This document shows positions 11,461 to 32,000 of a DNA stretch of 32,000 bases, piece after piece. Origin of the DNA: an uncultured Kangiella sp. (GTDB lineage Bacteria; Pseudomonadota; Gammaproteobacteria; Enterobacterales; Kangiellaceae); contig CAYVSL010000009.1 of assembly GCA_964454125.1 (NCBI GenBank), forward strand, positions 38,475 through 70,474, in the 5' to 3' direction. Within the stretch, counting starts at the first letter, position 1, and every line of letters begins with the position of its first letter. Under the pieces are notes generated by a model. That model was not told where the DNA came from. It saw only the letters and a list, made by a program, of their open reading frames with translations, and made no database searches. The translations under genes were made by a program, and so were the position numbers.

Positions 11461-12936
11461 CTATTTCTCTATGTCAATCCATTCACGCTTATCTGCGGCT
11501 AAAAGCTCATCAGATTCACTCGGCCCCCAACTACCCGCTCGATATAAATAAGGAACGACATCATTTTCTCTCCAATAATCAATAATAGGGTCAACCCAGT
11601 GCCAAGCAGCGCTACCCTCATCTCTATGGATAAACAGTGAAGCGTTTCCAGAAATTGCATCGAGTAATAACCGCTTATATCCAAAACTTTTAAATCCATT
11701 AGATGATTTGGTAAAGTTTAAATCTAACTTAACGGGTTTTAAAACGGTTTTAAGTTGAGTCATATCTTTTGCCATTAACAAAAGCTGCATTCTTTCTTCT
11801 GGTTGTAGTTGGATAATTAACCTGTTAGGTACTAATGGCCCAGCCTCAGCGTCAAATGCATTGTGTGAGACGTTTTTAAATTGAATAACAATTTCCGCAC
11901 TACGTCGTTTAAGTCGTTTGCCTGTTCTCAAATAAAAGGGGACTTGTGCCCAGCGCCAGTTATCTATGTTGGCACGGATCGCAACAAAGGTTTCGGTTTG
12001 ACTTGTTCCAGAACCTAGCTCTTCAAGGTATCCAGGTTCTAATTTTCCTTCAACATTCCCTGCCACATATTGTCCGCGAACCGTATATTTTTTAACATCA
12101 TCGCCGGTAATTGGTCGAAGTGCTTGAAGTACTTTAATTTTTTCTGTGCGAATATTGTCTGCGCCCATTTTGTTGGGTGATTCCATCGCAACCAGTCCAA
12201 GTAATTGAAGTAAATGATTTTGTACCATATCGCGCATTGCGCCGGCGCCATCATAAAACCCCGCTCGTCCTTCCAATCCAACTTGTTCGTTAATGCTGAT
12301 TTGAATATGGTCAATAGATTTAGCATCCCAAAACTGTTCAAACAAAGAATTACTAAAGCGTAATGCTAATAAATTCTGTACGGTTTCTTTACCTAAATAA
12401 TGATCAATACGATAGATTTGTTCTTCCTGAAAGTGATTGGCTATTTTCTGATTGATAGCTTCAGCAGAAACTTGGTCATAACCAATTGGTTTTTCTACAA
12501 CGACACGAGAGTCCGTTGTAATAAGATCCGCTTTGTCTAGGTTTTCACAACAGTCGCCATAAATACTCGGAATAATTGCGAGATAAAAAATTCTGGGGAA
12601 AGAAGCACGCCCCTCAAAGAGGGTGATAAATTCCTTCCAGCCTTTTTGATAGTCTGCAACATCAACGATTGCCGGTTGAATGAGTTTGGTAAATTGCTTA
12701 AAACTCTTGGTGCAAAACTCATCCTGCAACATAAATTTTTTGAATGCCGTTTCGACAATGGATAAAGTATTATCGTAATCTTTTTGTTTTCTTGAACACA
12801 CCAATATTCTAGAGCCTTGTGGAATTTCCTCTTCCATAAATGCGCGATACATAGAGGGCAGCAGTTTCCGCAGCGATAGATCGCCCGTTCCGCCAAATAA
12901 AACTAAATCAAAAGGTTTATCTAATACAGTTGTCAA
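11461..12936 (-). CDS. zwf: glucose-6-phosphate 1-dehydrogenase
   Basis: LFGGTGDLSLRKL dinucleotide-binding motif and the G6PD signature RIDHYLGKE. TTG start with AAGAG ~8 nt upstream; no upstream ATG is available before the edd stop. Confidence 0.95.
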   Translation of the reverse strand: MTTVLDKPFDLVLFGGTGDLSLRKLLPSMYRAFMEEEIPQGSRILVCSRKQKDYDNTLSIVETAFKKFMLQDEFCTKSFKQFTKLIQPAIVDVADYQKGWKEFITLFEGRASFPRIFYLAIIPSIYGDCCENLDKADLITTDSRVVVEKPIGYDQVSAEAINQKIANHFQEEQIYRIDHYLGKETVQNLLALRFSNSLFEQFWDAKSIDHIQISINEQVGLEGRAGFYDGAGAMRDMVQNHLLQLLGLVAMESPNKMGADNIRTEKIKVLQALRPITGDDVKKYTVRGQYVAGNVEGKLEPGYLEELGSGTSQTETFVAIRANIDNWRWAQVPFYLRTGKRLKRRSAEIVIQFKNVSHNAFDAEAGPLVPNRLIIQLQPEERMQLLLMAKDMTQLKTVLKPVKLDLNFTKSSNGFKSFGYKRLLLDAISGNASLFIHRDEGSAAWHWVDPIIDYWRENDVVPYLYRAGSWGPSESDELLAADKREWIDIEK

Positions 12937-12964: not shown

Positions 12965-14833
12965 TTAACCGAAACTAGTTGCACCGTGTTCTGCGCTGGT
13001 CACATTTTTTCTAAAATTCTTAAACAATTCTCTCCCCATACCAACTTGATCTTGGTCGTTGGGCTTTAGAGCTTGTTTACGTTTAGATAAAGTATTTTCT
13101 GTGACCATTAATTCGAGTGTTCCCTGTTTTGCATCTAGTCGAATCATGTCACCATTGGCAATTTTTCCGATCAGTCCATTATCTAACGCTTCCGGTACGA
13201 GATGAATAGCAGCCGGAATTTTTCCAGAAGCGCCTGACATTCGCCCGTCAGTGACTAGTGCGACAGAGAACCCCGCATCTTGTAATGAGCCTAAAATAGG
13301 AGTGAGTTTGTGGAGTTCCGGCATGCCGTTGGCTTGTGGGCCTTGAAAGCGAATGACCGCAATAAAGTCCTTTTGTAATTTGCCTTGCTTAAATAAATTA
13401 ACCAAATCATTTTGATCATCGACGACCACCGCTTGAGCTTCAACCACCAACCGATCTTCAGCCACCGAAGAGGTTTTGATTACTGATCGGCCCAGATTCC
13501 CGGTTAATAATTGCAATCCACCCTGTTGACTAAACGCTTTTTTTGTTGGGCACAAAACAGATTCATCCAAGCTATCCTGAGGAGCCTCTTTCCATTGAAC
13601 CCATTTACTTTCAGATCCAACCTGATGATTCTGTCTGAAAATTTCCGCTTGATTGTTATCAATTAATTCAGGTTCTTCAAAATAATGGCAAAGACCTTTC
13701 CCCATCACGGTATAAACATCTTGATGTAAATATCCTGCATCACTGAGTTCCCTAATTAAAAAGGGCATACCACCAGCGGCCTGAAAATGATTGATGTCGG
13801 CGCTACCATTAGGGTAAATTCTACAAAGCAATGGCACGGTCGCGGAGATATTGGCCATATCTTGCCAATCAATAATGATCCCTGCGGCTCTAGCGATAGC
13901 GATAATATGAATCGCGTGATTAGTCGATCCGCCAGTGGCAAATAAACCGACTAATCCATTAACGATCGTTTTTTCGCTAATAATTTTGTAAAGAGGAACT
14001 TGTTCGGATTTATTTTGCTGTAGATTATTGAGCAATATTTCAACCGCTTTACTCGATAAACAATCCCTTAGTTCTGTACTTGGTGGTACAAAAGAGCTGC
14101 CAGCTAAATGTAACCCCATTATTTCCATTAACATCTGATTGCTATTGGCAGTACCGTAAAAAGTACAGGTTCCCTCACCATGATAGGACGCGCTCTCGGA
14201 GGCTAATAATTCTTTTCTACCCACTTTACCTTCGGCATAGGCTTGTCGGACTTTTGCCTTGGCGTCATTACTTTGTCCGGTCAACATAGGTCCGGCAGGT
14301 AAAAAGATAGTGGGTAAATGAGCAAAACTTAATGCTCCGATAAGTAGTCCAGGAACGATCTTATCGCATACGCCTAAACAAATAATTCCATCAAACATGT
14401 CATGTGATAATGAGACAGCTGTGGCCATTGCAATTAAATCGCGACTAAAAAGTGACAATTCCATGCCAGCCTGTCCTTGGGTCACTCCATCACACATTGC
14501 CGGGACACATCCTGCTAGCTGCGCGGTAGCTCCCAATCGAGATGCGGTGGTTTTAATTAGGTCGGGGTAGTTACCGTAAGGATGATGAGCAGACAGCATA
14601 TCGTTGTATGCACTAATAATTGCTAGGTTTGGCGCGTCTTCTTTGGCTAAGATTGATTTTTCGGTCGAATTGCAAGCGGCCATACCATGAGCCAAATTGC
14701 CGCAACTTAATGCTGAGCGTGTTCGGCCGGTTGTAAGTGCAGCCTCCATTCGCACAACGTATCTCTCTCTTGTTGGCTTACTTTTAGCCATGATAGATTG
14801 GGTGATACGATCAATATTGTCCGTTAATGTCAT
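12965..14833 (-). CDS. edd: phosphogluconate dehydratase
   Basis: Collinear with E. coli Edd by eye: [51 protein letters not shown]. Confidence 0.95.
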
Positions 14834-22990: not shown

Positions 22991-24896
22991 AGATCAAAAA
23001 AAAATAAACCCTGATCTACAGCATAAAATGAAACTGGCCAACGCATTACCGATCACCATTATTTTCATTGGACTGGCGACTACCGGTTGGTTGTTTGAAA
23101 GCGAATTGAAAGCAACATATTCCAACACGATCGCGATTAATTTATTGCCCAATAGTAAGGAAAATAACGAAGAAGAAATCGTACAGGAAATAGGTGAGGT
23201 AAATGATAGGACCAATGAGGCTGCTAGTCTACTTTATGAAATCATGATTACAGAGCGCCAAGATAGCAAAAATTCGGGTTATAGTGACTTGCTTTCTCAT
23301 TTATCGGATGCTGAAAAATTGATGGCAAAAACTATAGCGGTTAAGCGATTGAAATCTAATCGATATTATGAGCAAGCTTTAGAGATATTGGTTGGCATGA
23401 CTCAGAAACAACAAGAGTCCCAACAGCTTATTTTTTCTAAGGCATATGTTTTGGCTAAATTAGGTGATCGCTCTGCTGCAATTATAAGTTATGAATATTT
23501 ACTTTCACTACAGAAAAACCACCAAGCCGCGAATATAAACTTGGGATTGTTGTATTTGGCACAAGGCGAGATGAAAAAGGCTGAACAAATTTTTAATCGA
23601 GGTGTTTTGCAAACCGCAGGCCTTAAAAAAGCAAAAAATTATTTTGGTTTAGGTGATGCATATCTGCAACAGAAAAATTATCCTTTAGCGCTTGATAGTT
23701 ACACAAAGGCTATCGAGTACTTTCCAGCTTATGCACCAAGTTGGCGGCGATTAGGTAAGGTTGCAAGGATTATGGATAATCATAAACTGGCTTTAGATGG
23801 TTATCATAACTCCATTTCTCTTGACAAAAACAATATTAAAACTAGGATGGAGTTCGCTGACTACTTAAATAGCCGTTTGCAATACGAAAAGGCTATAGAT
23901 CAACTAAAAAATGCCAAGAGAATTGATCGGGAAAGTTTTTCTATCCGATTGAACTTGGCGTTTAGTTTTTTGCGAGCAGGTAAACCGATCAATGCCAAAA
24001 AACAGCTTAACCTAGCAAAAAGAAATATTCAAAATGAAACGCAAAAAAGACAAAGTGAGGCAATACAAAAATACCTAGTAGAGAGATATTCGGAAACAAT
24101 AAAAATACTGAAGGGAAATATAAAAAAAGGAAGTAATAATGACTTTGAATATTACTTACTCGCGCTCAGTTATACATCACTTAAAAAATATAATGTTGCC
24201 CAAAAATATATTGAAGAGATCGCTTTAGATTCCGATTATTATTATCAAGGCAGATATTTACTAGCCAAATCCCTTCTCGACAATGAACAATTTGCCGAGT
24301 CTGTTGAAGTTTTTCGCACCATTACATCAACAATTGATGATAATTTCATTGTTTTGAACCAGGCTTCCAAAGCAGAGCAGATGTCAAAAAACTATCAACA
24401 AGCTATCGAGCTGGTTAATATAGCGTTGAAGCTAAGGAAAGACCGAAAATTGCTTCTGCGAAGAGCTGATCTTTATTGGGTGTTAGGTAAGCAAAATGCC
24501 GCCATTGAGCAATTGAAGAAAATTGTACAAGATTATCCCCGTTATTTGCGAGCAATTTACCACCTGTCCAGCTATAATCACCAACTAAACAATCGTTCGG
24601 AAGCCATAGACGGTTTCGAAAAGCTGCTGGAAAAGCGTGCAAGCTACGGTGACGCACAATATCAGTTGGCGGTAATTTTCTTTGAACAGTCCGATTTTCT
24701 ATTAAGTCAGGATTTATTGGCCGCTTATTTGCTGAAAAAACCTGACTCCAAACGAACTAGACTGCTATATGCTCGTACGTTTTGTGAAACCGGTCAATCT
24801 CAAGCATGCAAAGAACAGTTAGAATTAGTACTCAAGATAGCGCCTGGTTACCAGCCCGCGCTAGAATTACAACAATCAATTGATTATTTAGATTAA
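22974..24896 (+). CDS. membrane-anchored TPR-repeat protein (~640 aa)
   Basis: The preferred start is the ATG at 22974 (AAGAGGG upstream), which overlaps the preceding gene by 17 nt. There is one N-terminal hydrophobic helix (LPITIIFIGLATTGWLF). Many 34-aa TPR-like repeats follow (e.g. AYVLAKLGDRSAAIISYEYLLSLQKNHQAA, GLGDAYLQQKNYPLALDSYTKAIEYFPAYA). Confidence 0.8.
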   Translation: MNSPSEDQKKINPDLQHKMKLANALPITIIFIGLATTGWLFESELKATYSNTIAINLLPNSKENNEEEIVQEIGEVNDRTNEAASLLYEIMITERQDSKNSGYSDLLSHLSDAEKLMAKTIAVKRLKSNRYYEQALEILVGMTQKQQESQQLIFSKAYVLAKLGDRSAAIISYEYLLSLQKNHQAANINLGLLYLAQGEMKKAEQIFNRGVLQTAGLKKAKNYFGLGDAYLQQKNYPLALDSYTKAIEYFPAYAPSWRRLGKVARIMDNHKLALDGYHNSISLDKNNIKTRMEFADYLNSRLQYEKAIDQLKNAKRIDRESFSIRLNLAFSFLRAGKPINAKKQLNLAKRNIQNETQKRQSEAIQKYLVERYSETIKILKGNIKKGSNNDFEYYLLALSYTSLKKYNVAQKYIEEIALDSDYYYQGRYLLAKSLLDNEQFAESVEVFRTITSTIDDNFIVLNQASKAEQMSKNYQQAIELVNIALKLRKDRKLLLRRADLYWVLGKQNAAIEQLKKIVQDYPRYLRAIYHLSSYNHQLNNRSEAIDGFEKLLEKRASYGDAQYQLAVIFFEQSDFLLSQDLLAAYLLKKPDSKRTRLLYARTFCETGQSQACKEQLELVLKIAPGYQPALELQQSIDYLD

Positions 24897-24947
24897 TTCA
24901 GGAATTAAGTGGACAATTTATGAAGTTACTAAAGGCTACCCCATTAC

Positions 24948-26084
24948 ATGGTTAATTTTCGTAAATTGTTGATTTTGGCTTTAATCGCTAGCCCTTCGGT
25001 TGTTATTGCTTCAGATAACGAATCGGTCAATGCGACAGTTGTGTATGGTTTGGATACTAATCCACACCAGTTGTCCAGCGGACTGATGCCTGTCGAACAA
25101 AAATTTGTTGCGGGCGAATTTAAATTGCGCAGTGATATATATAAAACCTTCTATTTTAGCGCCAAAGCAGAAAAATCGGTTTATTTTGATGACGCCAGAG
25201 CCGATCAACTTAATGCTTCTGCCAATTTGGCATTAAAATCAGATTTTAAGATATTTAAACAAAAGTTTAAATACAAGATTGCTGCGAACTATCGCGCTAA
25301 AGACAAGACCTACGTAAGTAAAACAACGGGGTTAGTGGCAACCTTTGGTGGACGATCGATTGCTGATCGTTATGATTCTACTCAAATTAATTATCTAGGT
25401 GAGCTCTCTTATAAACTTCATAAATTCCTCAAGTTGGATATTTCTTATCAATCCAGAGAAAAAATATACCAAGACTATGATATAGCCGGTCTCAGTAATT
25501 TGGACTACGCTCAGCAATTTGTTCAACTAGGAATGCAGTATAAGGCTTCTGACGTAGGACGGTTTTATCTCAATCTAGCGGTCAAACAGCGCGAATATAT
25601 AGACAAACGGATCAAAGACCTAGAAGGCATAGACATCGCTGCTACTGATTTAATTTATGACTACCATACGGTTAATATTGGTTATATTTTTCGACCCGGC
25701 AAGGATATTCGCTGGAAATTTGCCTACAACTACGAAGATCGTGCCGATAATGGCTTAGGATATTTCAATGCAAACAGTGGATATCTGTCGATCGCTGGCA
25801 AATACCGTTTTGGCAATTACCATTTTTTAAAAAGCCGGGTAAAATATTCACAGTTTTCCTTTGTGAATCAACTCGATCAAGGCGAAGATCCATTAGATGA
25901 AGAAGCCAAAGAAAAACAAGGTGTGTCCTTGATGGTAGGGTATGAATGGGTGGTTGCTACCTTGTTTGATTCAAATTTTGCTGTTTATCTTGAACTTGAG
26001 TATTCCAATTTTGACAATACCAACACCATTTATACCTATGAGAGAAGCATGGCATCAATTGGTATACGTTGGTCAGCTTTTTAA
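24948..26084 (+). CDS. predicted outer-membrane beta-barrel protein
   Basis: Signal peptide MVNFRKLLILALIASPSVVIASD. The sequence shows an alternating aromatic/hydrophilic strand pattern and is rich in Y/F/N/D. The C-terminal ...GIRWSAF ends in Phe, as in OMP beta-signals. Confidence 0.62.
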   Translation: MVNFRKLLILALIASPSVVIASDNESVNATVVYGLDTNPHQLSSGLMPVEQKFVAGEFKLRSDIYKTFYFSAKAEKSVYFDDARADQLNASANLALKSDFKIFKQKFKYKIAANYRAKDKTYVSKTTGLVATFGGRSIADRYDSTQINYLGELSYKLHKFLKLDISYQSREKIYQDYDIAGLSNLDYAQQFVQLGMQYKASDVGRFYLNLAVKQREYIDKRIKDLEGIDIAATDLIYDYHTVNIGYIFRPGKDIRWKFAYNYEDRADNGLGYFNANSGYLSIAGKYRFGNYHFLKSRVKYSQFSFVNQLDQGEDPLDEEAKEKQGVSLMVGYEWVVATLFDSNFAVYLELEYSNFDNTNTIYTYERSMASIGIRWSAF

Positions 26085-26093
26085 GATATTGAT

Positions 26094-26121
26094 TTGATTC
26101 AATGACATTTTAGTTTATTAT
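26094..26121 (+). promoter_or_regulatory. candidate promoter of tRNA-Arg (TTGATT-16-TATTAT, then GCGC)
   Basis: The hexamers and spacing were read directly from the sequence, with a GC-rich discriminator after the -10. It lies ~55 nt upstream of the mature tRNA 5' end. Confidence 0.4.
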
Positions 26122-26176
26122 GCGCACTGCTTTTTCTAGCATACTCATTTAAATCAGGATTGTAGCAAATTAATAG

Positions 26177-26253
<77 letters not shown>

Positions 26254-26257
26254 TATT

Positions 26258-26292
26258 AAAGGCTTTCAGCCTTATTCACATTTTTTCTCATA
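26258..26292 (+). terminator. small hairpin plus T-tract after tRNA-Arg
   Basis: AAGGCT-TTC-AGCCTT stem-loop at 26259-26273, followed within ~10 nt by TTTTTT. Confidence 0.45.
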
Positions 26293-26425
26293 CTTATCTT
26301 AGTGCTCTAAAATAGCAATTGAAGATAAACTGTTTTATAGATTACTACCTATCCCCAAACTATCGATCAAACTGGGATGTGCGGTCATAACATCTGCTCA
26401 ACAATACTGCTGAATTAGAATCTAA

Positions 26426-26707
26426 ATGAAAGAACTTCACGAATTATTAGACCAAGTAAAAGACTCAAAGACATTCATCATATTTGCGAAAGCATTGCAA
26501 GATGATCGTGAGCCCCATGAAGATAGAGAATCTGATGATGTGGGATTTTGCGGTGACTGGGCGAACAACGATATCTGGGGTTTTTTGGAAGCAGGAATTT
26601 CTTGGGCTGAATCTTCAAAGTTTGGAGAGAACACAGAACAGAATATTGGCGACAATCCATGGAAGCAGTTTGCTACTTTCTTGTATTGTGGAAAAACTTA
26701 TGAATAA
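26426..26707 (+). CDS. small hypothetical protein (93 aa)
   Basis: Intact ORF just downstream of tRNA-Arg. It is acidic and Trp-rich (WANNDIWGFLEAGISWAES...NPWKQFATFLYCGKTYE). No function could be assigned by eye. Confidence 0.5.
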   Translation: MKELHELLDQVKDSKTFIIFAKALQDDREPHEDRESDDVGFCGDWANNDIWGFLEAGISWAESSKFGENTEQNIGDNPWKQFATFLYCGKTYE

Positions 26708-27089
26708 CTTTCCATCTGAAATAGAAATGCAGTCTCTTATCGAAAAAGAAATTTGTTCGATGGATTCTGGACTTAAGAAATATGCTAGCTCAATTCTCAT
26801 TCCATTAAAGAGAAAAAAACTAAAATGGGAGTACGGGAATGATGAGGAGTTTACTTCTTGGATTTTTGCTGACTTTGGAGAGCGTAATGTTGCTGCAGCT
26901 TATTGTTTAGGCGGGCATGGCGAGAATGGGAATTCTTGGGGATTGATATTCACAAACGATGATTCCTTCGGTATGGATGCGACGAAGCCATTAAAGTACA
27001 AAGAATCCTTGATAGGTTTTATCCGTATTTTGGCTTTGATAAGATTAATTCAACTTACACATATATTAACGAGAACTAATCAATTGTAG
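26700..27089 (+). CDS. small hypothetical protein (~129 aa), possibly frameshifted near its 3' end
   Basis: The ATG at 26700 overlaps the previous stop by 8 nt. The upstream part of the 201-aa ORF-track entry overlaps 26426-26707 out of frame and is discounted. After ...SFGMDA another frame (...DEAIKVQRILDRFYPYFGFDKINSTYTYINEN) also reads protein-like, so the true 3' end is uncertain. Confidence 0.4.
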   Translation: MNNFPSEIEMQSLIEKEICSMDSGLKKYASSILIPLKRKKLKWEYGNDEEFTSWIFADFGERNVAAAYCLGGHGENGNSWGLIFTNDDSFGMDATKPLKYKESLIGFIRILALIRLIQLTHILTRTNQL

Positions 27090-27403: not shown

Positions 27404-27853
27404 TAGCGAATAGATTCAGTAACTTATAGAGCCTCAGTCGTAGTATAGTCGCAATGAAAGTGAGATTGTGCCAGCTCAGCGCCGACAGCACATTGTACAA
27501 TGAAAACGCTTATCAATTCAATGTTGCTTGGGAATCGAACCCGTGTTAACAAGTAACTCTACTTTTTTATCGAATTTTTTATATTTAGCGAATTGATTGA
27601 ATAATTCTAAATAAGCATTTAGCATGTCTTATCATAATAAAATAAGTGCTTTCGACGCAAAGCGGACATCGAGTTTTTATTCTGACCTTAGAATAATTAG
27701 TGAATTTAATACAAGGAGTTCTATTCTAATGAGCCACACTTTCAAAGTATGCCAACGACCTCAGATTCTGCTTAAAATCCTAGCCAATATTGGTATGATG
27801 ACTAGGGTTTGGATGAAAAATATTTGCCGCATCAAAACTGTGAGCACAGAATA

Positions 27854-29371
27854 ATGTTTTTTTCTATTTCCAATAGCGTTCTAACAGGAGTTTTTAGTCA
27901 AGCTTTTCTAACAGAAGACAATTGGGATGATTGGGGTAAATACAGAACTCAATTTTATCTTCGAGTAGCTGATGAATTGGGTGCTGTTCATGATATAGGA
28001 TCAGTAAAGATTGGAAAGGTGGGATTACGGTCAGGTCGGACTGTTGAACCGGAGCAAAGAGCACCGCAGCCGCCCTCACAATTTGATGCATTAAACCCGA
28101 CTTATTTTTCTCTTGGGCAAGGAGAAGATTACTACGAGGCTTTGAACAAACTTAGCGAGGATCTCAGGCTAAGGGTACTGATTGGCCTGCAGGATATTGC
28201 GAACAACTTACAATTACTGGATGCAAATGAAGCAGAAGAGGTCATGGGTGAATCACTCTTGCGGAGTGTTCAGGCGACCAACGTAAGAAATAGATTACAT
28301 CGAATCACTCAAGGGAATGCGGCACTTACACGATTTAGTTTTCAATATACTTTGCCTCATCTAGAAAATATGGCCTCCCCAATTACAACGTTTGATGTTA
28401 TTCCTGAATCTGTACCTCCTACCAATGTGCATGTGTTAATTGGTCGGAACGGCGTAGGCAAGTCTAGGTGTATCCGTGGGCTAGTAGAAGCATTGTTAGA
28501 GAGGGAGGGTGAAGCAAACAATACACCTGGAAGGATAGAACTATTCTCCGATGGAGGTGCAAATGATTGGTCCTTCGCAGGTTTAGTACTAGTTTCATTT
28601 AGTGCGTTTGATGATTTCAATCTGTATCCTCAAGAACAAGATGCTATTGGCGCAAACCAGATAGGATTAAGTAAGTCTGGGAGCACAGGCTTAAAATCTA
28701 TACCAGAGCTTGCAATTGATTTTAGAAAAAGCCTCTTTAATTGCCGGCAGAGCCTCAAGGCAGCCCGGTGGCGTGATGCTGTACATAAACTTGAAAAAGA
28801 TGATTTATTTGCTGAAGCAAATGTAACAACTCTTTTCGATCAGCCGCCAGATGCTAATTGGAGTCAAAGAGCTGAGGCCTTATTCAAACGGCTCAGCTCC
28901 GGACACGCAATAATTTTATTAACGATTACTCGTTTGGTTGAGTTGGTTGATGAAAAGACACTGGTATTGCTTGATGAACCGGAAGGTCATTTACATCCTC
29001 CATTGCTGGCAGCTTTCATTCGGGCTCTGTCAGATTTGTTGGTAAAAAGAAACGGCGTGGCAATTATTGCAACTCATTCACCTGTCGTTTTACAAGAAGT
29101 GCCCCAAACTTGCGCTTGGAAACTTCGACGTAGTCGAGATGTATCTGTAGTGGAAAGGCCAAGCCTCGAGACTTTTGGAGAAAATATAGGGCTATTAACA
29201 CGGGAAGTTTTTGGTTTAGAGGTTACACATGCAGGATTTCATGATCTTCTCAAAGAGGCTGTTGAAGCAAATATGAGTTTTAATAAAGTCCTTCAGCATT
29301 TTAATGGGCAGCTCGGTATGGAGGCACAGGCAATCGTGCAGGCTCTCATCTCTCTGCGAGATCAGGTATAG
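27854..29371 (+). CDS. ABC/SMC-like ATPase (DEPExHLHP class, as in OLD/GajA/AriA/PtuA) with a ~190-aa uncharacterised N-terminal domain
   Basis: Walker A GRNGVGKS (nt 28442-28465), signature-like LSSGH (28892-28906), Walker B LVLLDEPEGHLHP (from 28961) and H-loop IATHSP. The ATG at 27854 is preferred over the TTG at 27809 listed in the ORF track, but neither has a strong Shine-Dalgarno. Confidence 0.8.
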   Translation: MFFSISNSVLTGVFSQAFLTEDNWDDWGKYRTQFYLRVADELGAVHDIGSVKIGKVGLRSGRTVEPEQRAPQPPSQFDALNPTYFSLGQGEDYYEALNKLSEDLRLRVLIGLQDIANNLQLLDANEAEEVMGESLLRSVQATNVRNRLHRITQGNAALTRFSFQYTLPHLENMASPITTFDVIPESVPPTNVHVLIGRNGVGKSRCIRGLVEALLEREGEANNTPGRIELFSDGGANDWSFAGLVLVSFSAFDDFNLYPQEQDAIGANQIGLSKSGSTGLKSIPELAIDFRKSLFNCRQSLKAARWRDAVHKLEKDDLFAEANVTTLFDQPPDANWSQRAEALFKRLSSGHAIILLTITRLVELVDEKTLVLLDEPEGHLHPPLLAAFIRALSDLLVKRNGVAIIATHSPVVLQEVPQTCAWKLRRSRDVSVVERPSLETFGENIGLLTREVFGLEVTHAGFHDLLKEAVEANMSFNKVLQHFNGQLGMEAQAIVQALISLRDQV

Positions 29372-29373
29372 TT

Positions 29374-30210
29374 ATGCGTCGGTTGCCTAAACCTGAAATA
29401 TCTGCAGGCATAGTTTTTAATCTATGCATTGATAGTATTACGGATCCAAACCTCAAAATGAGATTGTGTCGCTCACGTCATATTGTTGAAGCCGCTGAAG
29501 CAGTGTATATCACACAGGCTGAACTCACTGCATTGCATTCAATTCCTGATACAAACGGAATTGGCGGTATTGTTACAAACGCGGAAATGAAGCGTGTATA
29601 CAATGGGACGTTCGTTCGCAGTGTCAGTACTCGTGACATATATGGAGCACTAAAATCAGCACCTGAGAACGACATTTGCCCTCTATGCTCCCAAAGAGCA
29701 GTCAGTCAACTGGATCATTATCTACCTAAATCGCGTCATTCATCGCTTGTTGTGACGCCAGTTAACCTTGTGCCTGCTTGTGGAGAGTGTAATAAAGTAA
29801 AGCTAGATTTGCAGGTTACGCAGGCAGAAGACCAGACTTTTCACCCGTACTTCGAGGATGCGGATGATGCCCGATGGCTTTATGCAAGAGTCGAACAGTC
29901 AAATGGCGGAGCACTTGTATTTTTTGCGCAGCCTCCAAATGAGTGGAGTAACATCAAAAAGCAAAGAATCGCAGTTCATTTTAAGACCTACAAATTGGCC
30001 AATCTTTACGCCTCTCATTCGGCTGTTGAACTCAAGGATATGCAGTTTGGGTTGAGACAAATGAAATTGCGAAACTCTCCTCAAGAGATCAGTAATCATT
30101 TGCGTAAGGTAGCTGAGAGTCGTGCAGCCGCACATGATAACTCTTGGAGAAGGGCTGCCTACGAAGCACTCGCAGATTCTGTTTGGTTTTGTGAAGGGGG
30201 TTTCGACTAA
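29374..30210 (+). CDS. HNH endonuclease-domain protein (278 aa), coupled to the upstream ATPase
   Basis: Zinc-finger HNH core CPLCSQRAVSQLDHYLPKS...VNLVPACGECNKVK (nt 29677-29796). The start is 2 nt after the ATPase stop codon. Confidence 0.85.
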   Translation: MRRLPKPEISAGIVFNLCIDSITDPNLKMRLCRSRHIVEAAEAVYITQAELTALHSIPDTNGIGGIVTNAEMKRVYNGTFVRSVSTRDIYGALKSAPENDICPLCSQRAVSQLDHYLPKSRHSSLVVTPVNLVPACGECNKVKLDLQVTQAEDQTFHPYFEDADDARWLYARVEQSNGGALVFFAQPPNEWSNIKKQRIAVHFKTYKLANLYASHSAVELKDMQFGLRQMKLRNSPQEISNHLRKVAESRAAAHDNSWRRAAYEALADSVWFCEGGFD

Positions 30211-30343
30211 TTTTCGTGACTTTCGATAAAGATATTCAGGGGCGTCAATTAAACGGACGAAGCAATAAATAATTAAATGTCTGTTTATTGCCGTTAACTC
30301 GAATTTATAAATAGAGCATCCCTGCCCATTATTTTATTTAATC

Positions 30344-30381
30344 AGGATGAATGGGGACGTGTCTTGAATTGCCGGTTTTAA
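30344..30381 (+). repeat. 38-bp direct repeat, copy 1 (AGGATGAATGGGGACGTGTCTTGAATTGCCGGTTTTAA)
   Basis: Identical at 37 of 38 positions to 31963-32000, in the same orientation. The sequences upstream of the two copies are unrelated. Confidence 0.9.
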
Positions 30382-30420
30382 GATGGTTGTTTAATTTATA
30401 AAAAAGAAATATCTGCCCCT

Positions 30421-30459
30421 AAAGCCCAAGTCAGTGATGAATTGGGCTTTTACTTTTTA
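30421..30459 (+). terminator. hairpin AAAGCCCAA-N12-TTGGGCTTT followed by T-rich tract
   Basis: Perfect 9-bp stem at 30421-30429/30442-30450, then TACTTTTTAT on the plus strand. It sits between repeat copy 1 and the XRE remnant's stop. Confidence 0.45.
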
Positions 30460-30624
30460 TCCTCTAACTTGAGACCAACGCCTAGCATCATGTTTTAGCA
30501 AAATACCATCAATCATTTCTTTGATGATTTCTTTCTCACGCCGATCAAGTTTAGCAACCGCTTCAAATTGAAGAGGTAGTTCTTCATCATCTTTGGCACC
30601 CTGATGCGTCGCTACAGCGCGAAT
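30457..30624 (-). pseudogene. C-terminal remnant of an XRE-family HTH regulator (HTH part missing)
   Basis: The minus-strand frame reads ...GAKDDEELPLQFEAVAKLDRREKEIIKEMIDGILLKHDARRWSQVRG*. This resembles the conserved C-terminal tail of a widespread XRE regulator family. It has no start codon or HTH region, and the frame closes at 30625-30627. Confidence 0.4.
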
Positions 30625-31407
30625 GAATCACCTCGCGCCAAGGCTTTTCGCTTTGGCTCAAATTCGCTACGCGAAGAGAGGTATCTTATAGCGTTAAGTT
30701 CAAAAACTTTACGCCGCAAGCGGCTGGGAATTAAACCCGTTCAGATTAAAAAATTTATACTCTGGTGTGATGAGCGAGAGTTAAACCAGCCATAAGACAT
30801 CACCAGACCGATTTTAGAGCGTTACAAAAGTTATCTCTATTACTATCGAAAAGCGGACGGTCAACCTTTAAGCTTTAGCAGCCAACATGTGATGCTCACC
30901 CCCATCAAAACTTTTTTTAAATGGTTAACGAGAGAAAATTATTGTCTTTACAATCCGGCCAGTGAAATGGAGCTACCGAAGAAAGCCAAAAAGCTCCCAC
31001 AATATATTCTCAGTATTGAAGAGATCGAAACCATTATGCAGCAACCGGACATCACTAGTCCCAAAGGCATTCGTGATAGAGCTATCCTCGAAGTGCTTTA
31101 TTCCACCGGTATGAGACGAATGGAAATGACCAATCTCTCCATTTATGATATTGATGTGAAACGTGGTGACCTGGATCAGAGAAGGTAAGGGCATGAAAGA
31201 TCGACTCATATGCTAGAAAATGGCGCGGATATCCGATTCATTCAGGCGATGCTCGGCCATGAAGATTTAGCGACCACCGAAATTTATACGCACGTGTCGA
31301 TTGAGAAATTGAAAGAGATCCATACGTCGACCCATCCGGCTAGAGGTATGAATAAGGAGGGCAGTAGTCATGCTGATGATGAGTTTAAGTCGGACGACTG
31401 TTTATAA
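30604..31407 (+). pseudogene. disrupted XerC/XerD-like tyrosine recombinase
   Basis: Recombinase-like sequence lies in three pieces. There is an in-frame TAA at 30793-30795 (..FILWCDERELNQP*DITRPILERYKSYLYYYRK..). A frameshift occurs near 31165-31190 (another frame reads [11 protein letters not shown]). An internal deletion joins ...KDRLI directly to [38 protein letters not shown], removing most of the catalytic core between the GKGxKxR and HxLRH regions. Confidence 0.8.
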
Positions 31408-31448: not shown

Positions 31449-31464
31449 TATTAAGGTGATAAAA

Positions 31465-31716
31465 ATGACAAGTATTACAGCTAATGAGTTAAAAACTAAG
31501 GGGATCTCGGCTTTGGAAAATGCTTTAGAAAGTGATGATGAAGCGATTATTACCGTGCGAGGAAAGGATAAATACGTGATTGTTGACCTAAAAAAATACA
31601 GTAAAATGAGAGAATATGAACTAGAAGTCGCGTTGCTTGAAGCGAGGGCAGATATTGCTAATGATCAAACCCAAAAAGAGACAGTTACTGAGCATATGAA
31701 ACGAGTACTCGACTAA
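31465..31716 (+). CDS. Phd/YefM-type antitoxin
   Basis: Small acidic protein beginning MTSITANELKTKGISALENAL...AIITVRGKDKYVIVDLKKY, typical of Phd/YefM antitoxin N-domains. ATG at 31465 with AAGG 8 nt upstream. Its stop overlaps the toxin start (TAATG). Confidence 0.72.
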   Translation: MTSITANELKTKGISALENALESDDEAIITVRGKDKYVIVDLKKYSKMREYELEVALLEARADIANDQTQKETVTEHMKRVLD

Positions 31717-32000
31717 TGACTTACATGCTTATTTATCCTGAAAGCTATATTAAACGAGCCAGAAAGTTTTTACGTAAGCATCCTGAAATACATAACCAGT
31801 ATCAAAAAACGCTTGAATTATTAGAGCTTGATCCACATCACCCCTCACTTCGGTTTCATCATTTATCAGGTCGATTAAAAGATTTGTCATCTGTCTCGAT
31901 CAATATGAGTTATCGGATCACTTTAGAATTAGAGATCCGAGACAAGGAAATTATCTTGGTTAAGGATGAATGGGGACGTGTCTTGAATTGCCAGTTTTAA
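31716..32000 (+). CDS. RelE/ParE-superfamily toxin with a non-native C-terminus encoded by repeat copy 2
   Basis: MTYMLIYPESYIKRARKFLRKHPEIHNQYQKTLELLELDPHHPSLRFHHLSGRLKDLSSVSINMSYRITLELEIRDKEIILV follows the RelE/StbE fold pattern. The last 12 codons (KDEWGRVLNCQF*) are encoded entirely by the 38-bp repeat, and the stop is the last codon of the window. Confidence 0.7.
   Translation: MTYMLIYPESYIKRARKFLRKHPEIHNQYQKTLELLELDPHHPSLRFHHLSGRLKDLSSVSINMSYRITLELEIRDKEIILVKDEWGRVLNCQF
31963..32000 (+). repeat. 38-bp direct repeat, copy 2 (AGGATGAATGGGGACGTGTCTTGAATTGCCAGTTTTAA)
   Basis: See copy 1. There is a single G/A difference, and this copy runs to the window edge, so its true length is unknown. 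Confidence 0.9.

Follow-up and report, generated by a model that had tools for sequence, protein, structure and literature searches.

We analysed a 32,000-nucleotide stretch of DNA from an uncultured Kangiella sp. (contig CAYVSL010000009.1, positions 38,475 to 70,474 of the forward strand), which we call the window. Two adjacent genes on its + strand form an ATPase-nuclease pair that almost certainly belongs to the family of the phage lambda proteins Ea59 and Ea31, named PDC-M01 in PADLOC. The first gene, open reading frame 1 (ORF1, 27854..29371), runs for 505 aa from an ATG start to a TAG stop and encodes an Ea59-like or PtuA-like ATPase of the ATP-binding cassette (ABC) type, which corresponds to PDC-M01A. 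The second, ORF2 (29374..30210), also starts with ATG and encodes an Ea31-like or PtuB-like HNH nuclease of 278 aa, which corresponds to PDC-M01B. The pair is a distant relative of Septu with an architecture of its own; it is Septu in the broad sense of the databases, and lies outside the canonical and the retron-type PtuAB families. Most likely, it functions as an ATPase-controlled HNH nuclease in defence against phages or mobile elements.

Membership in the lambda Ea59/Ea31 family

Both proteins match the PDC-M01 models of PADLOC over their full length, and the two genes are adjacent and co-oriented. ORF1 matches PDC-M01A (PDLC04235) with E 1.2e-190, its aa 15-503 aligning with profile positions 18-506 of 510, and ORF2 matches PDC-M01B (PDLC04264) with E 1.1e-96 (aa 1-277 on profile positions 1-278 of 282). 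All 25 among the PADLOC matches listed for ORF2 are PDC-M01B. A second PADLOC model, PtuA1|PtuA (PDLC00282), matches ORF1 with E 1.1e-167 along profile positions 14-517 of 520, the N-terminal region being covered. Structurally, the window pair is no different from PDC-M01. Two shorter PADLOC models, one of 388 aa for PDC-M01A and one of 216 aa for B, begin only at aa 129 and aa 69, respectively, from which it follows that both N-terminal extensions are modular. Among the PHROGs, ORF1 corresponds to phrog_8066 (E 9e-149) and ORF2 to phrog_10378, “HNH endonuclease” (E 7e-54). The genes stand far above chance, given profile matches at E 1e-190 and 1e-96 and thousands of homologues.

The original prediction had described an ABC-type ATPase with an HNH protein in the layout of Septu, and had considered the system possibly undescribed. 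The layout is borne out: the Pfam families AAA_21 (50.8 bits, cut-off 27) and AAA_15 (34.3 bits, cut-off 32.1) score above their cut-offs in ORF1, in the C-terminal ATPase half only, and the HNH gene lies directly downstream. The novelty is largely refuted by the full-length matches to PDC-M01A, PDC-M01B and PtuA1, which include the N-terminal region of the ATPase. It is also unsupported because the family is already in PADLOC and in the PHROGs, and because its type members are lambda ea59 and ea31. The locus is thus one more member in a family of thousands, and the kind of system is already known. A scan of both proteins against NCBIfam gave no match above cut-off, the best and weak match of ORF1 being TIGR04435, “restriction system-associated AAA family ATPase”. 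In the profile searches, which had been proposed as a check, both proteins match PDC-M01 or PtuA1 in full length, but they do not reach the NCBIfam cut-offs for PtuA and PtuB.

ORF1 is 40% identical to lambda Ea59 over 97% of its length, including the N-terminal domain (tblastn; BLASTP E 1e-121), and ORF2 aligns with the whole of Ea31 at 23% identity (BLASTP E 6e-23). In this comparison, the nuclease partner is far more diverged than the ATPase. Ea59 and Ea31 match the same PADLOC models as ORF1 and ORF2, and Ea59 also matches PDLC00282. In the lambda genome (NC_001416), ea59 (25396-26973, “AAA family ATPase”) precedes ea31 (24509-25399, “HNH endonuclease”) with a 4-nt overlap, and both genes lie in the b region by att and int. 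The order is that of the window, ATPase then HNH, and the lengths are 525 and 296 aa in lambda versus 505 and 278 aa in the window. Because of this homology and the PADLOC and PHROG models that they have in common, the pair is a chromosomal member of the Ea59/Ea31 family. The lambda copy is phage-borne, whereas the window copy is chromosomal and belongs to an island linked to tRNA-Arg in an uncultured bacterium with ~39% GC.

A tblastn search found a homologue in 24 of 50,697 phage records, nearly all of which are lambda itself. Two records under other names, a Salmonella enterica plasmid record (NZ_CP082339.1, 48,502 bp) and “Campylobacter phage CJLB-4” (MW057783.1, 48,361 bp), have matches that equal lambda ea59 in score and position. 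They look like lambda DNA deposited under another name, for example sequencing control DNA, given that scores and positions are identical and the lengths are equal or near to 48,502 bp. Our literature searches on ea59/ea31 together with defence, and on the lambda “ben” enzyme, returned no paper that ties these genes to defence. The “ben” enzyme may have been mapped to the b region and identified as Ea31, which we treat as no more than a lead.

Relation to Septu and other ATPase systems

Septu and the window pair are both two-gene systems composed of an ABC ATPase and an HNH protein. In each, the nuclease has a C-terminal domain made of helices, and helices are also present at the C terminus of the ATPase. 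Our Septu comparators were those of E. coli ATCC 25922 and EcB88, and PDB entries 8EE4, 8EE7 and 8EEA. Of the solved proteins, those closest to both ORFs in sequence and structure are the PtuAB proteins of type I-A retrons (Ec78/Eco7 and Ec83), also called Septu type II.

In a Foldseek search of the ORF1 model against the PDB, the first 28 matches are without exception PtuA chains, of retron Ec78 or Ec83 or of E. coli Septu. With the ORF2 model, the top five matches are all PtuB (9vhl_F, 9nnh_K, 9u9y_H, 9nnb_J and 8eea_G), at probabilities of 1.0-0.38, and the structures other than PtuB are all at a probability of 0.4 or less. Against BFVD, the ORF1 model retrieved only generic viral ABC ATPases, and Ea59 was not found. 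At the sequence level, a PDB search with ORF1 led only to the C-terminal ATPase half of retron Ec78 and Ec83 PtuA (E ~1e-6 with a profile), and the same type of search with ORF2, by sequence and profile, reached PtuB only non-significantly (E 1.2). Profile-profile alignment with hhalign placed the ORF1 family on Ec78 PtuA with 91% probability, from Walker B to the C-terminal region. The ORF2 family aligned to a 61-sequence TIGR02646/PtuB alignment with E 6.8e-5 over 168 columns, such that aa 85-267 of ORF2 lie on aa 27-210 of PtuB, i.e., on nearly the whole of PtuB and beyond the HNH core. We call the pair a distant relative with its own architecture because the PtuA and PtuB structures are nearest, but the TM-scores are low and the NCBIfam PtuA and PtuB models are not matched.

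In E. coli Septu PtuA, K43 and D316 are 273 aa apart (PMC13096335), whereas the corresponding K203 and D374 of ORF1 are separated by 171 aa, and ORF1 does not have the canonical architecture. The description of the ATPase in the original prediction as compact, and atypical relative to PtuA, agrees with this shorter distance between the Walker A lysine and the Walker B aspartate. Moreover, Septu PtuA lacks the conserved N-terminal domain of ~190 aa found in ORF1. The nuclease has ~85 more N-terminal residues than Septu PtuB, while its HNH spacing is the same: H115 and N131 of ORF2 are 16 residues apart, as are H75 and N91 of E. coli PtuB (PMC13096335). The clade is set apart from the structurally solved Septu by an extra conserved domain on each protein.

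Parts of a type I-A retron are missing. There is no reverse transcriptase among the genes and ORFs of the window, and an Rfam scan recovered a tRNA only, with no retron noncoding RNA. That the pair comes without a reverse transcriptase or other partner had been noted before, and gene calls, PADLOC and Rfam agree that none is nearby. OLD, Gabija GajA and PARIS AriA share with ORF1 an ABC ATPase head of the DEPExHLHP type, and ORF1 has weak matches to AriA (1e-14), to DUF2813 and to an OLD structure. However, OLD, Gabija and PARIS use a Toprim domain, of which Pfam and PADLOC scans found no match in ORF1 or ORF2; the window nuclease is a separate HNH protein. PrrC of EcoprrI is an anticodon nuclease that lies inside a type I restriction-modification (R-M) locus, and a minority of the relatives of the pair are likewise inside a type I R-M operon. 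PrrC is unrelated to the window pair in sequence, and the window has no R-M genes.

Architecture of the two proteins

Both ORFs are intact and full length, with all invariant residues of their families. We scored invariance over 120 homologues of each protein, and in both the catalytic residues are all invariant. The two genes are joined by the sequence TAG-TT-ATG (29369..29376), a gap of 2 nt that is consistent with translational coupling. ORF1 could also start further upstream, at an in-frame TTG (27809).

The first part of ORF1 is an N-terminal domain of about aa 1-190 (27854..28420), β-rich in aa 1-90 and helical in aa 91-152. Pfam scans of the isolated N- and C-terminal extensions gave no matches. 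The domain is strongly conserved, with invariant residues that include G49, K52, F85, S86, G88, E91, Y93, Y94, S134, L135 and R137, and is modelled by AlphaFold with a predicted local distance difference test score (pLDDT) above 90. It is specific to the clade and missing from canonical PtuA. The ATPase head follows. Its Walker A motif, GRNGVGKS, covers aa 197-204 (28442..28465; G197, R198, N199, G200, G202 and K203 invariant), and a sequence resembling the ABC signature, LSSGH, covers aa 347-351 (28892..28906; S348, S349, G350 and H351 invariant). Walker B and the D-loop, LVLLDEPEGHLHP, occupy aa 370-382 (28961..28999), where D374, E375, P376, E377, H379, L380, H381 and P382 are invariant, and the H-loop, ATHSP, occupies aa 406-410 (29069..29083; H408, S409 and P410 invariant). 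In the AlphaFold model of ORF1 (pLDDT 90), three helices (aa 461-502) extend past the ATPase head.

ORF2 has an HNH core (29677..29802) with a predicted four-cysteine zinc site formed by C102, C105, C136 and C139 and putative catalytic residues H115, N131 and N140. The motifs appear in the order CPLC (aa 102-105), eight residues, DHYLPKS (aa 114-120) and NLVPACGECNK (aa 131-141), and C105, D114, H115, N131, C136, C139 and N140 are invariant. A C-terminal helical domain of about aa 193-276 (29950..30207) forms a helical bundle according to the secondary structure in the AlphaFold model (pLDDT 95). This domain is a candidate docking site for the C-terminal helices of ORF1, and the C-terminal helices of both models are compatible with the docking principle of PtuAB.

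These features agree with the original prediction in several respects. It had placed the two ORFs 2 nt apart and listed their motifs, and we recovered the coordinates, the junction and every motif. Walker A does lie ~195 residues into the ATPase, and the long extensions predicted for the HNH protein are present as flanks of ~100 aa (N-terminal) and ~135 aa (C-terminal) around a core at aa 102-143. Its statement that the pair is richer in GC than its flanks holds in the literal sense, with 0.434 for the pair versus 0.395 for the whole window and 0.359 for the 1.6 kb upstream, but the contrast is weak. GC at third codon positions (GC3) is 0.32-0.37 in the pair, the same as in nearby host genes; the mild GC excess is therefore no strong sign of recent acquisition.

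Distribution and conservation of the pair

The family is large. At least 7,500 homologues of the ATPase were scored. For the nuclease, 3,126 cluster representatives (50% identity) match at E ≤ 1e-3, and 613 of these at E ≤ 1e-30; nearly all are 275-290 aa long. The B gene is located directly downstream of A in all 80 genome loci, which span Proteobacteria, Actinobacteria, Bacteroidota, Cyanobacteria, Firmicutes, Planctomycetota, Chloroflexota and other lineages. Measured in 78 loci, the spacing from the A stop to the B start has its modes at -4 and -1 nt, and 76 of the loci fall in the range of -14 to +12 nt. All-against-all clustering of the flanking ORFs in the 80 loci revealed no third conserved gene. 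A survey of the neighbourhoods of homologous pairs had been suggested as a check, and it supports the idea of a stand-alone two-gene module, with the A-B order kept in 80 of 80 loci.

The closest relative has 83% aa identity. Its nucleotide homology extends exactly over positions 27851-30211 of the window, with unrelated flanks, and the two genes therefore move as a unit. The same relative (locus L084, 2-745) has a type I R-M specificity gene, hsdS, whose stop overlaps the ATPase start. The pair is also inside a type I R-M operon in a minority of other loci (L006, L013, L020, L028, L033, L047, L061 and L075), and some loci have HsdR immediately beside the pair, at a distance of -3 to +3 nt. 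Homologues also occur in 125 plasmid records.

The 128 ORFs that are nearest neighbours of the pair include type I restriction endonucleases (4), LmuB (3), type IV restriction endonucleases (2), Mokosh (2), AbiEii (2) and integrases (4), as well as methyltransferases, SIR2 domains and PLD domains. Within 8 kb of the pair, type I R-M genes occur in 8 of 79 loci and integrases in 10. Such a patchy, mobile and defence-adjacent distribution is the pattern expected of an immune module. The module is a very common two-gene ATPase-HNH arrangement, shared by lambda, plasmids and the chromosomes of many phyla, and it has only “candidate” status in defence databases.

We observed two unusual loci. In Xanthomonas translucens pv. 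cerealis (L014, 19943-21426, - strand), a second, diverged pair is present ~8 kb downstream on the opposite strand, consisting of a fragment of A (E 1e-36) and a B gene (E 1e-25). In a metagenome-assembled genome of Cyclobacteriaceae (L019), the nuclease gene is in two pieces (11467-11895 and 14089-14604) that are ~2.2 kb apart, as if interrupted by an insertion.

Probable function and proposed mechanism

We consider it probable that the pair has a defence function and a Septu-like mechanism. In the PtuAB complex, the ABC ATPase PtuA oligomerises, a pair of C-terminal extensions clamps the helical C-terminal domain of PtuB, and the complex, when released or activated, nicks supercoiled DNA (PMC12819146). 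The Septu of E. coli cleaves tRNA-Tyr, and its defence requires Walker and HNH residues alike (PMC13096335). A link between the two names also exists in the Bacillus cereus group, where some protein pairs count as Septu in DefenseFinder and as PDC-M01 in PADLOC (PMC11811056, supplement).

From these parallels, we infer the following scheme for the complex, its trigger and its substrate. ORF1, as an ATPase of the ABC/SMC (structural maintenance of chromosomes) type, would probably form a dimer or an oligomer through ATP-sandwich heads. Its C-terminal helices would probably hold the helical C-terminal domain of ORF2, which would keep the nuclease silent in uninfected cells. A cue from an invading phage or mobile element could then release or activate the nuclease. 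This cue might be sensed by the clade-specific N-terminal domain of 190 aa, which is the most likely sensor, or through the nucleotide state of the ATPase. The active nuclease would cut nucleic acid, either by nicking DNA or by cleaving tRNA as in E. coli Septu, and the invader would be stopped, possibly at the price of host growth.

A more far-reaching proposal, which we put forward tentatively and rather doubt, is that the Ea59/Ea31 (PDC-M01) clade works by a mechanism separate from that of Septu, as an ATPase-nuclease immune module whose dedicated sensor of a phage or of a DNA structure is the conserved 190-aa N-terminal domain, for which we know no fold family. If true, this would give a function to the orphan genes ea59 and ea31 of lambda some fifty years on, in phage-borne defence or in competition between phages. 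The compact pair of the window, or lambda ea59/ea31, would be a convenient entry point to the function of the clade and to what it senses.

Several observations weigh against a Septu-like defence function. The structural matches to PtuA and PtuB are remote, with TM-scores of 0.24-0.48 (0.28-0.48 for PtuB) at 12-16% identity, and the probability of the hhalign alignment of the ORF2 family to PtuB is only 63%. ORF1 scores 40.1 bits with the NCBIfam equivalog for PtuA (NF041760), whose cut-off is 500, and in the NCBIfam scan neither PtuB nor TIGR02646 matches ORF2 at E ≤ 1. Even the Pfam HNH family is at 16.1 bits in ORF2, below its cut-off of 21.4. The evidence from neighbourhoods is qualitative only, and PADLOC and the neighbouring genes revealed no other defence gene that adjoins the pair in the window. 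PDC-M01 has been termed an “unpublished candidate” (PMC11811056), and we found no phage or plasmid phenotype in the literature for any member of the clade. Finally, the best-known member is phage-borne, and its genes are non-essential in lambda (PMC10695390). The original prediction of a Septu-like module with an unusual ATPase is borne out, and the role against phages or mobile genetic elements that it proposed is plausible, the phenotype being one that we infer.

The pair could instead be an accessory module that serves the element carrying it, as a nuclease for competition with other phages or elements or in the processing of the element's own DNA. The homologues next to att and int in the b region of lambda fit this explanation, as do the integrases that adjoin the pair in 10 of 79 loci, the 125 plasmid records and the location of the window pair, which shares its island linked to tRNA-Arg with a decayed recombinase and toxin-antitoxin genes. 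However, most of the 80 genome loci have no phage or plasmid genes beside the pair, the 24 of 50,697 phage records with a homologue are nearly all lambda, and lambda grows without these genes (PMC10695390). Competition between elements is also hard to tell from defence. Overall, we regard this explanation as unlikely.

Another alternative is a back-up weapon that works with type I R-M, as PrrC does with EcoprrI, that an R-M complex holds latent until a phage inhibits restriction and that has been orphaned in the window. The overlap of the hsdS stop with the ATPase start in the closest relative, the HsdR genes that abut some pairs and the presence of type I R-M genes within 8 kb in 8 of 79 loci are in line with this idea, as is the name of the weak best NCBIfam match of ORF1, TIGR04435. 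By contrast, ~90% of the loci, including those of the window and lambda, have no R-M genes nearby, which makes the association facultative, like that of many defence genes that simply share an island. We find this scenario very unlikely. Both it and the carrier-element explanation overlap with defence.

Two further alternatives fit the distribution and the sequence conservation poorly. We find it highly improbable that the island is in decay and that the pair persists in it as a silent remnant, with its sequence intact but its expression or use lost. The recombinase next to the pair is in fragments, the repeats and an assembly variant described below point to rearrangements, and promoter-like sites upstream of the pair are no commoner than in shuffled sequence; nevertheless, both ORFs are full length with every family-invariant residue kept, GC3 is host-like and the coupled junction is intact. 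A housekeeping DNA-repair complex akin to Rad50-Mre11 or SbcCD is scarcely credible: the ABC/SMC fold is common to the ATPase and Rad50 (PMC12819146) and a nuclease partner lies downstream, but the pair is patchy across phyla, occurs on plasmids, in a phage, beside integrases and, here, in a tRNA-linked island by a decayed recombinase, lacks a long coiled coil and a phosphoesterase of the Mre11 type, and has its best profile matches to defence models throughout.

Surroundings of the pair in the window

The island is linked to a tRNA-Arg(CCT) gene (26177-26253), the sole RNA family matched by Rfam. Directly after it come a gene for a 93-aa DUF7660 protein (E 1.4e-8) and an overlapping 129-aa ORF without a family (together 26426-27089). 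A 76-aa ORF (27624-27854), whose stop overlaps the ORF1 start in the sequence TAATG and which one assembly calls a gene, was rejected as a component of the system. It is probably not a real component, since it has no Pfam, PHROG or PADLOC match and no counterpart upstream of related pairs.

Downstream of the pair, a tyrosine recombinase is split into two fragments (30889-31188 and 31210-31407) that match only positions 4-55 and 140-169 of Pfam Phage_integrase and lack the middle of the catalytic domain; it is a decayed integrase gene. It is followed by a Phd/YefM antitoxin and a RelE-like toxin (31456-32000). The setting among recombinase and toxin-antitoxin genes in a tRNA-Arg-linked island is therefore as originally described. 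Beyond the window edge, the contig continues with a ParE toxin and another integrase-family gene, and in the 3.7 kb of contig past the window, a search for a second tRNA-Arg 3′ end, as expected at the distal boundary of the island, found none.

A direct repeat of ~120 nt, 89% identical between copies, occurs at 30344-30465 and at 31964-32000, where it runs past the window edge. In locus L001 the copies are at 12491-12612 and 14627-14748. The repeat consists of the last 11 codons of a RelE-like toxin gene (DEWGRVLNC[R/Q]F*) and a hairpin; one copy is located 134 nt past ORF2, and the other makes up the 3′ end of the toxin ORF with which the window closes. We had considered reading the 122-nt repeat as an integron attC site, and dropped this idea in view of its composition of a toxin-gene 3′ end and a hairpin. 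The hairpin behind the pair, AAAGCCCAA-N12-TTGGGCTTTT (30421..30451, + strand), lies inside the 122-nt repeat and is followed by a T-rich tract. It is a possible terminator of the operon, and was missed by our terminator scan because its loop is longer than 8 nt. An otherwise identical contig (ENA ERZ27262693, k141_473879) contains ~516 bp that are missing from the window exactly at the repeat, which points either to an assembly variant or to the two copies having recombined.

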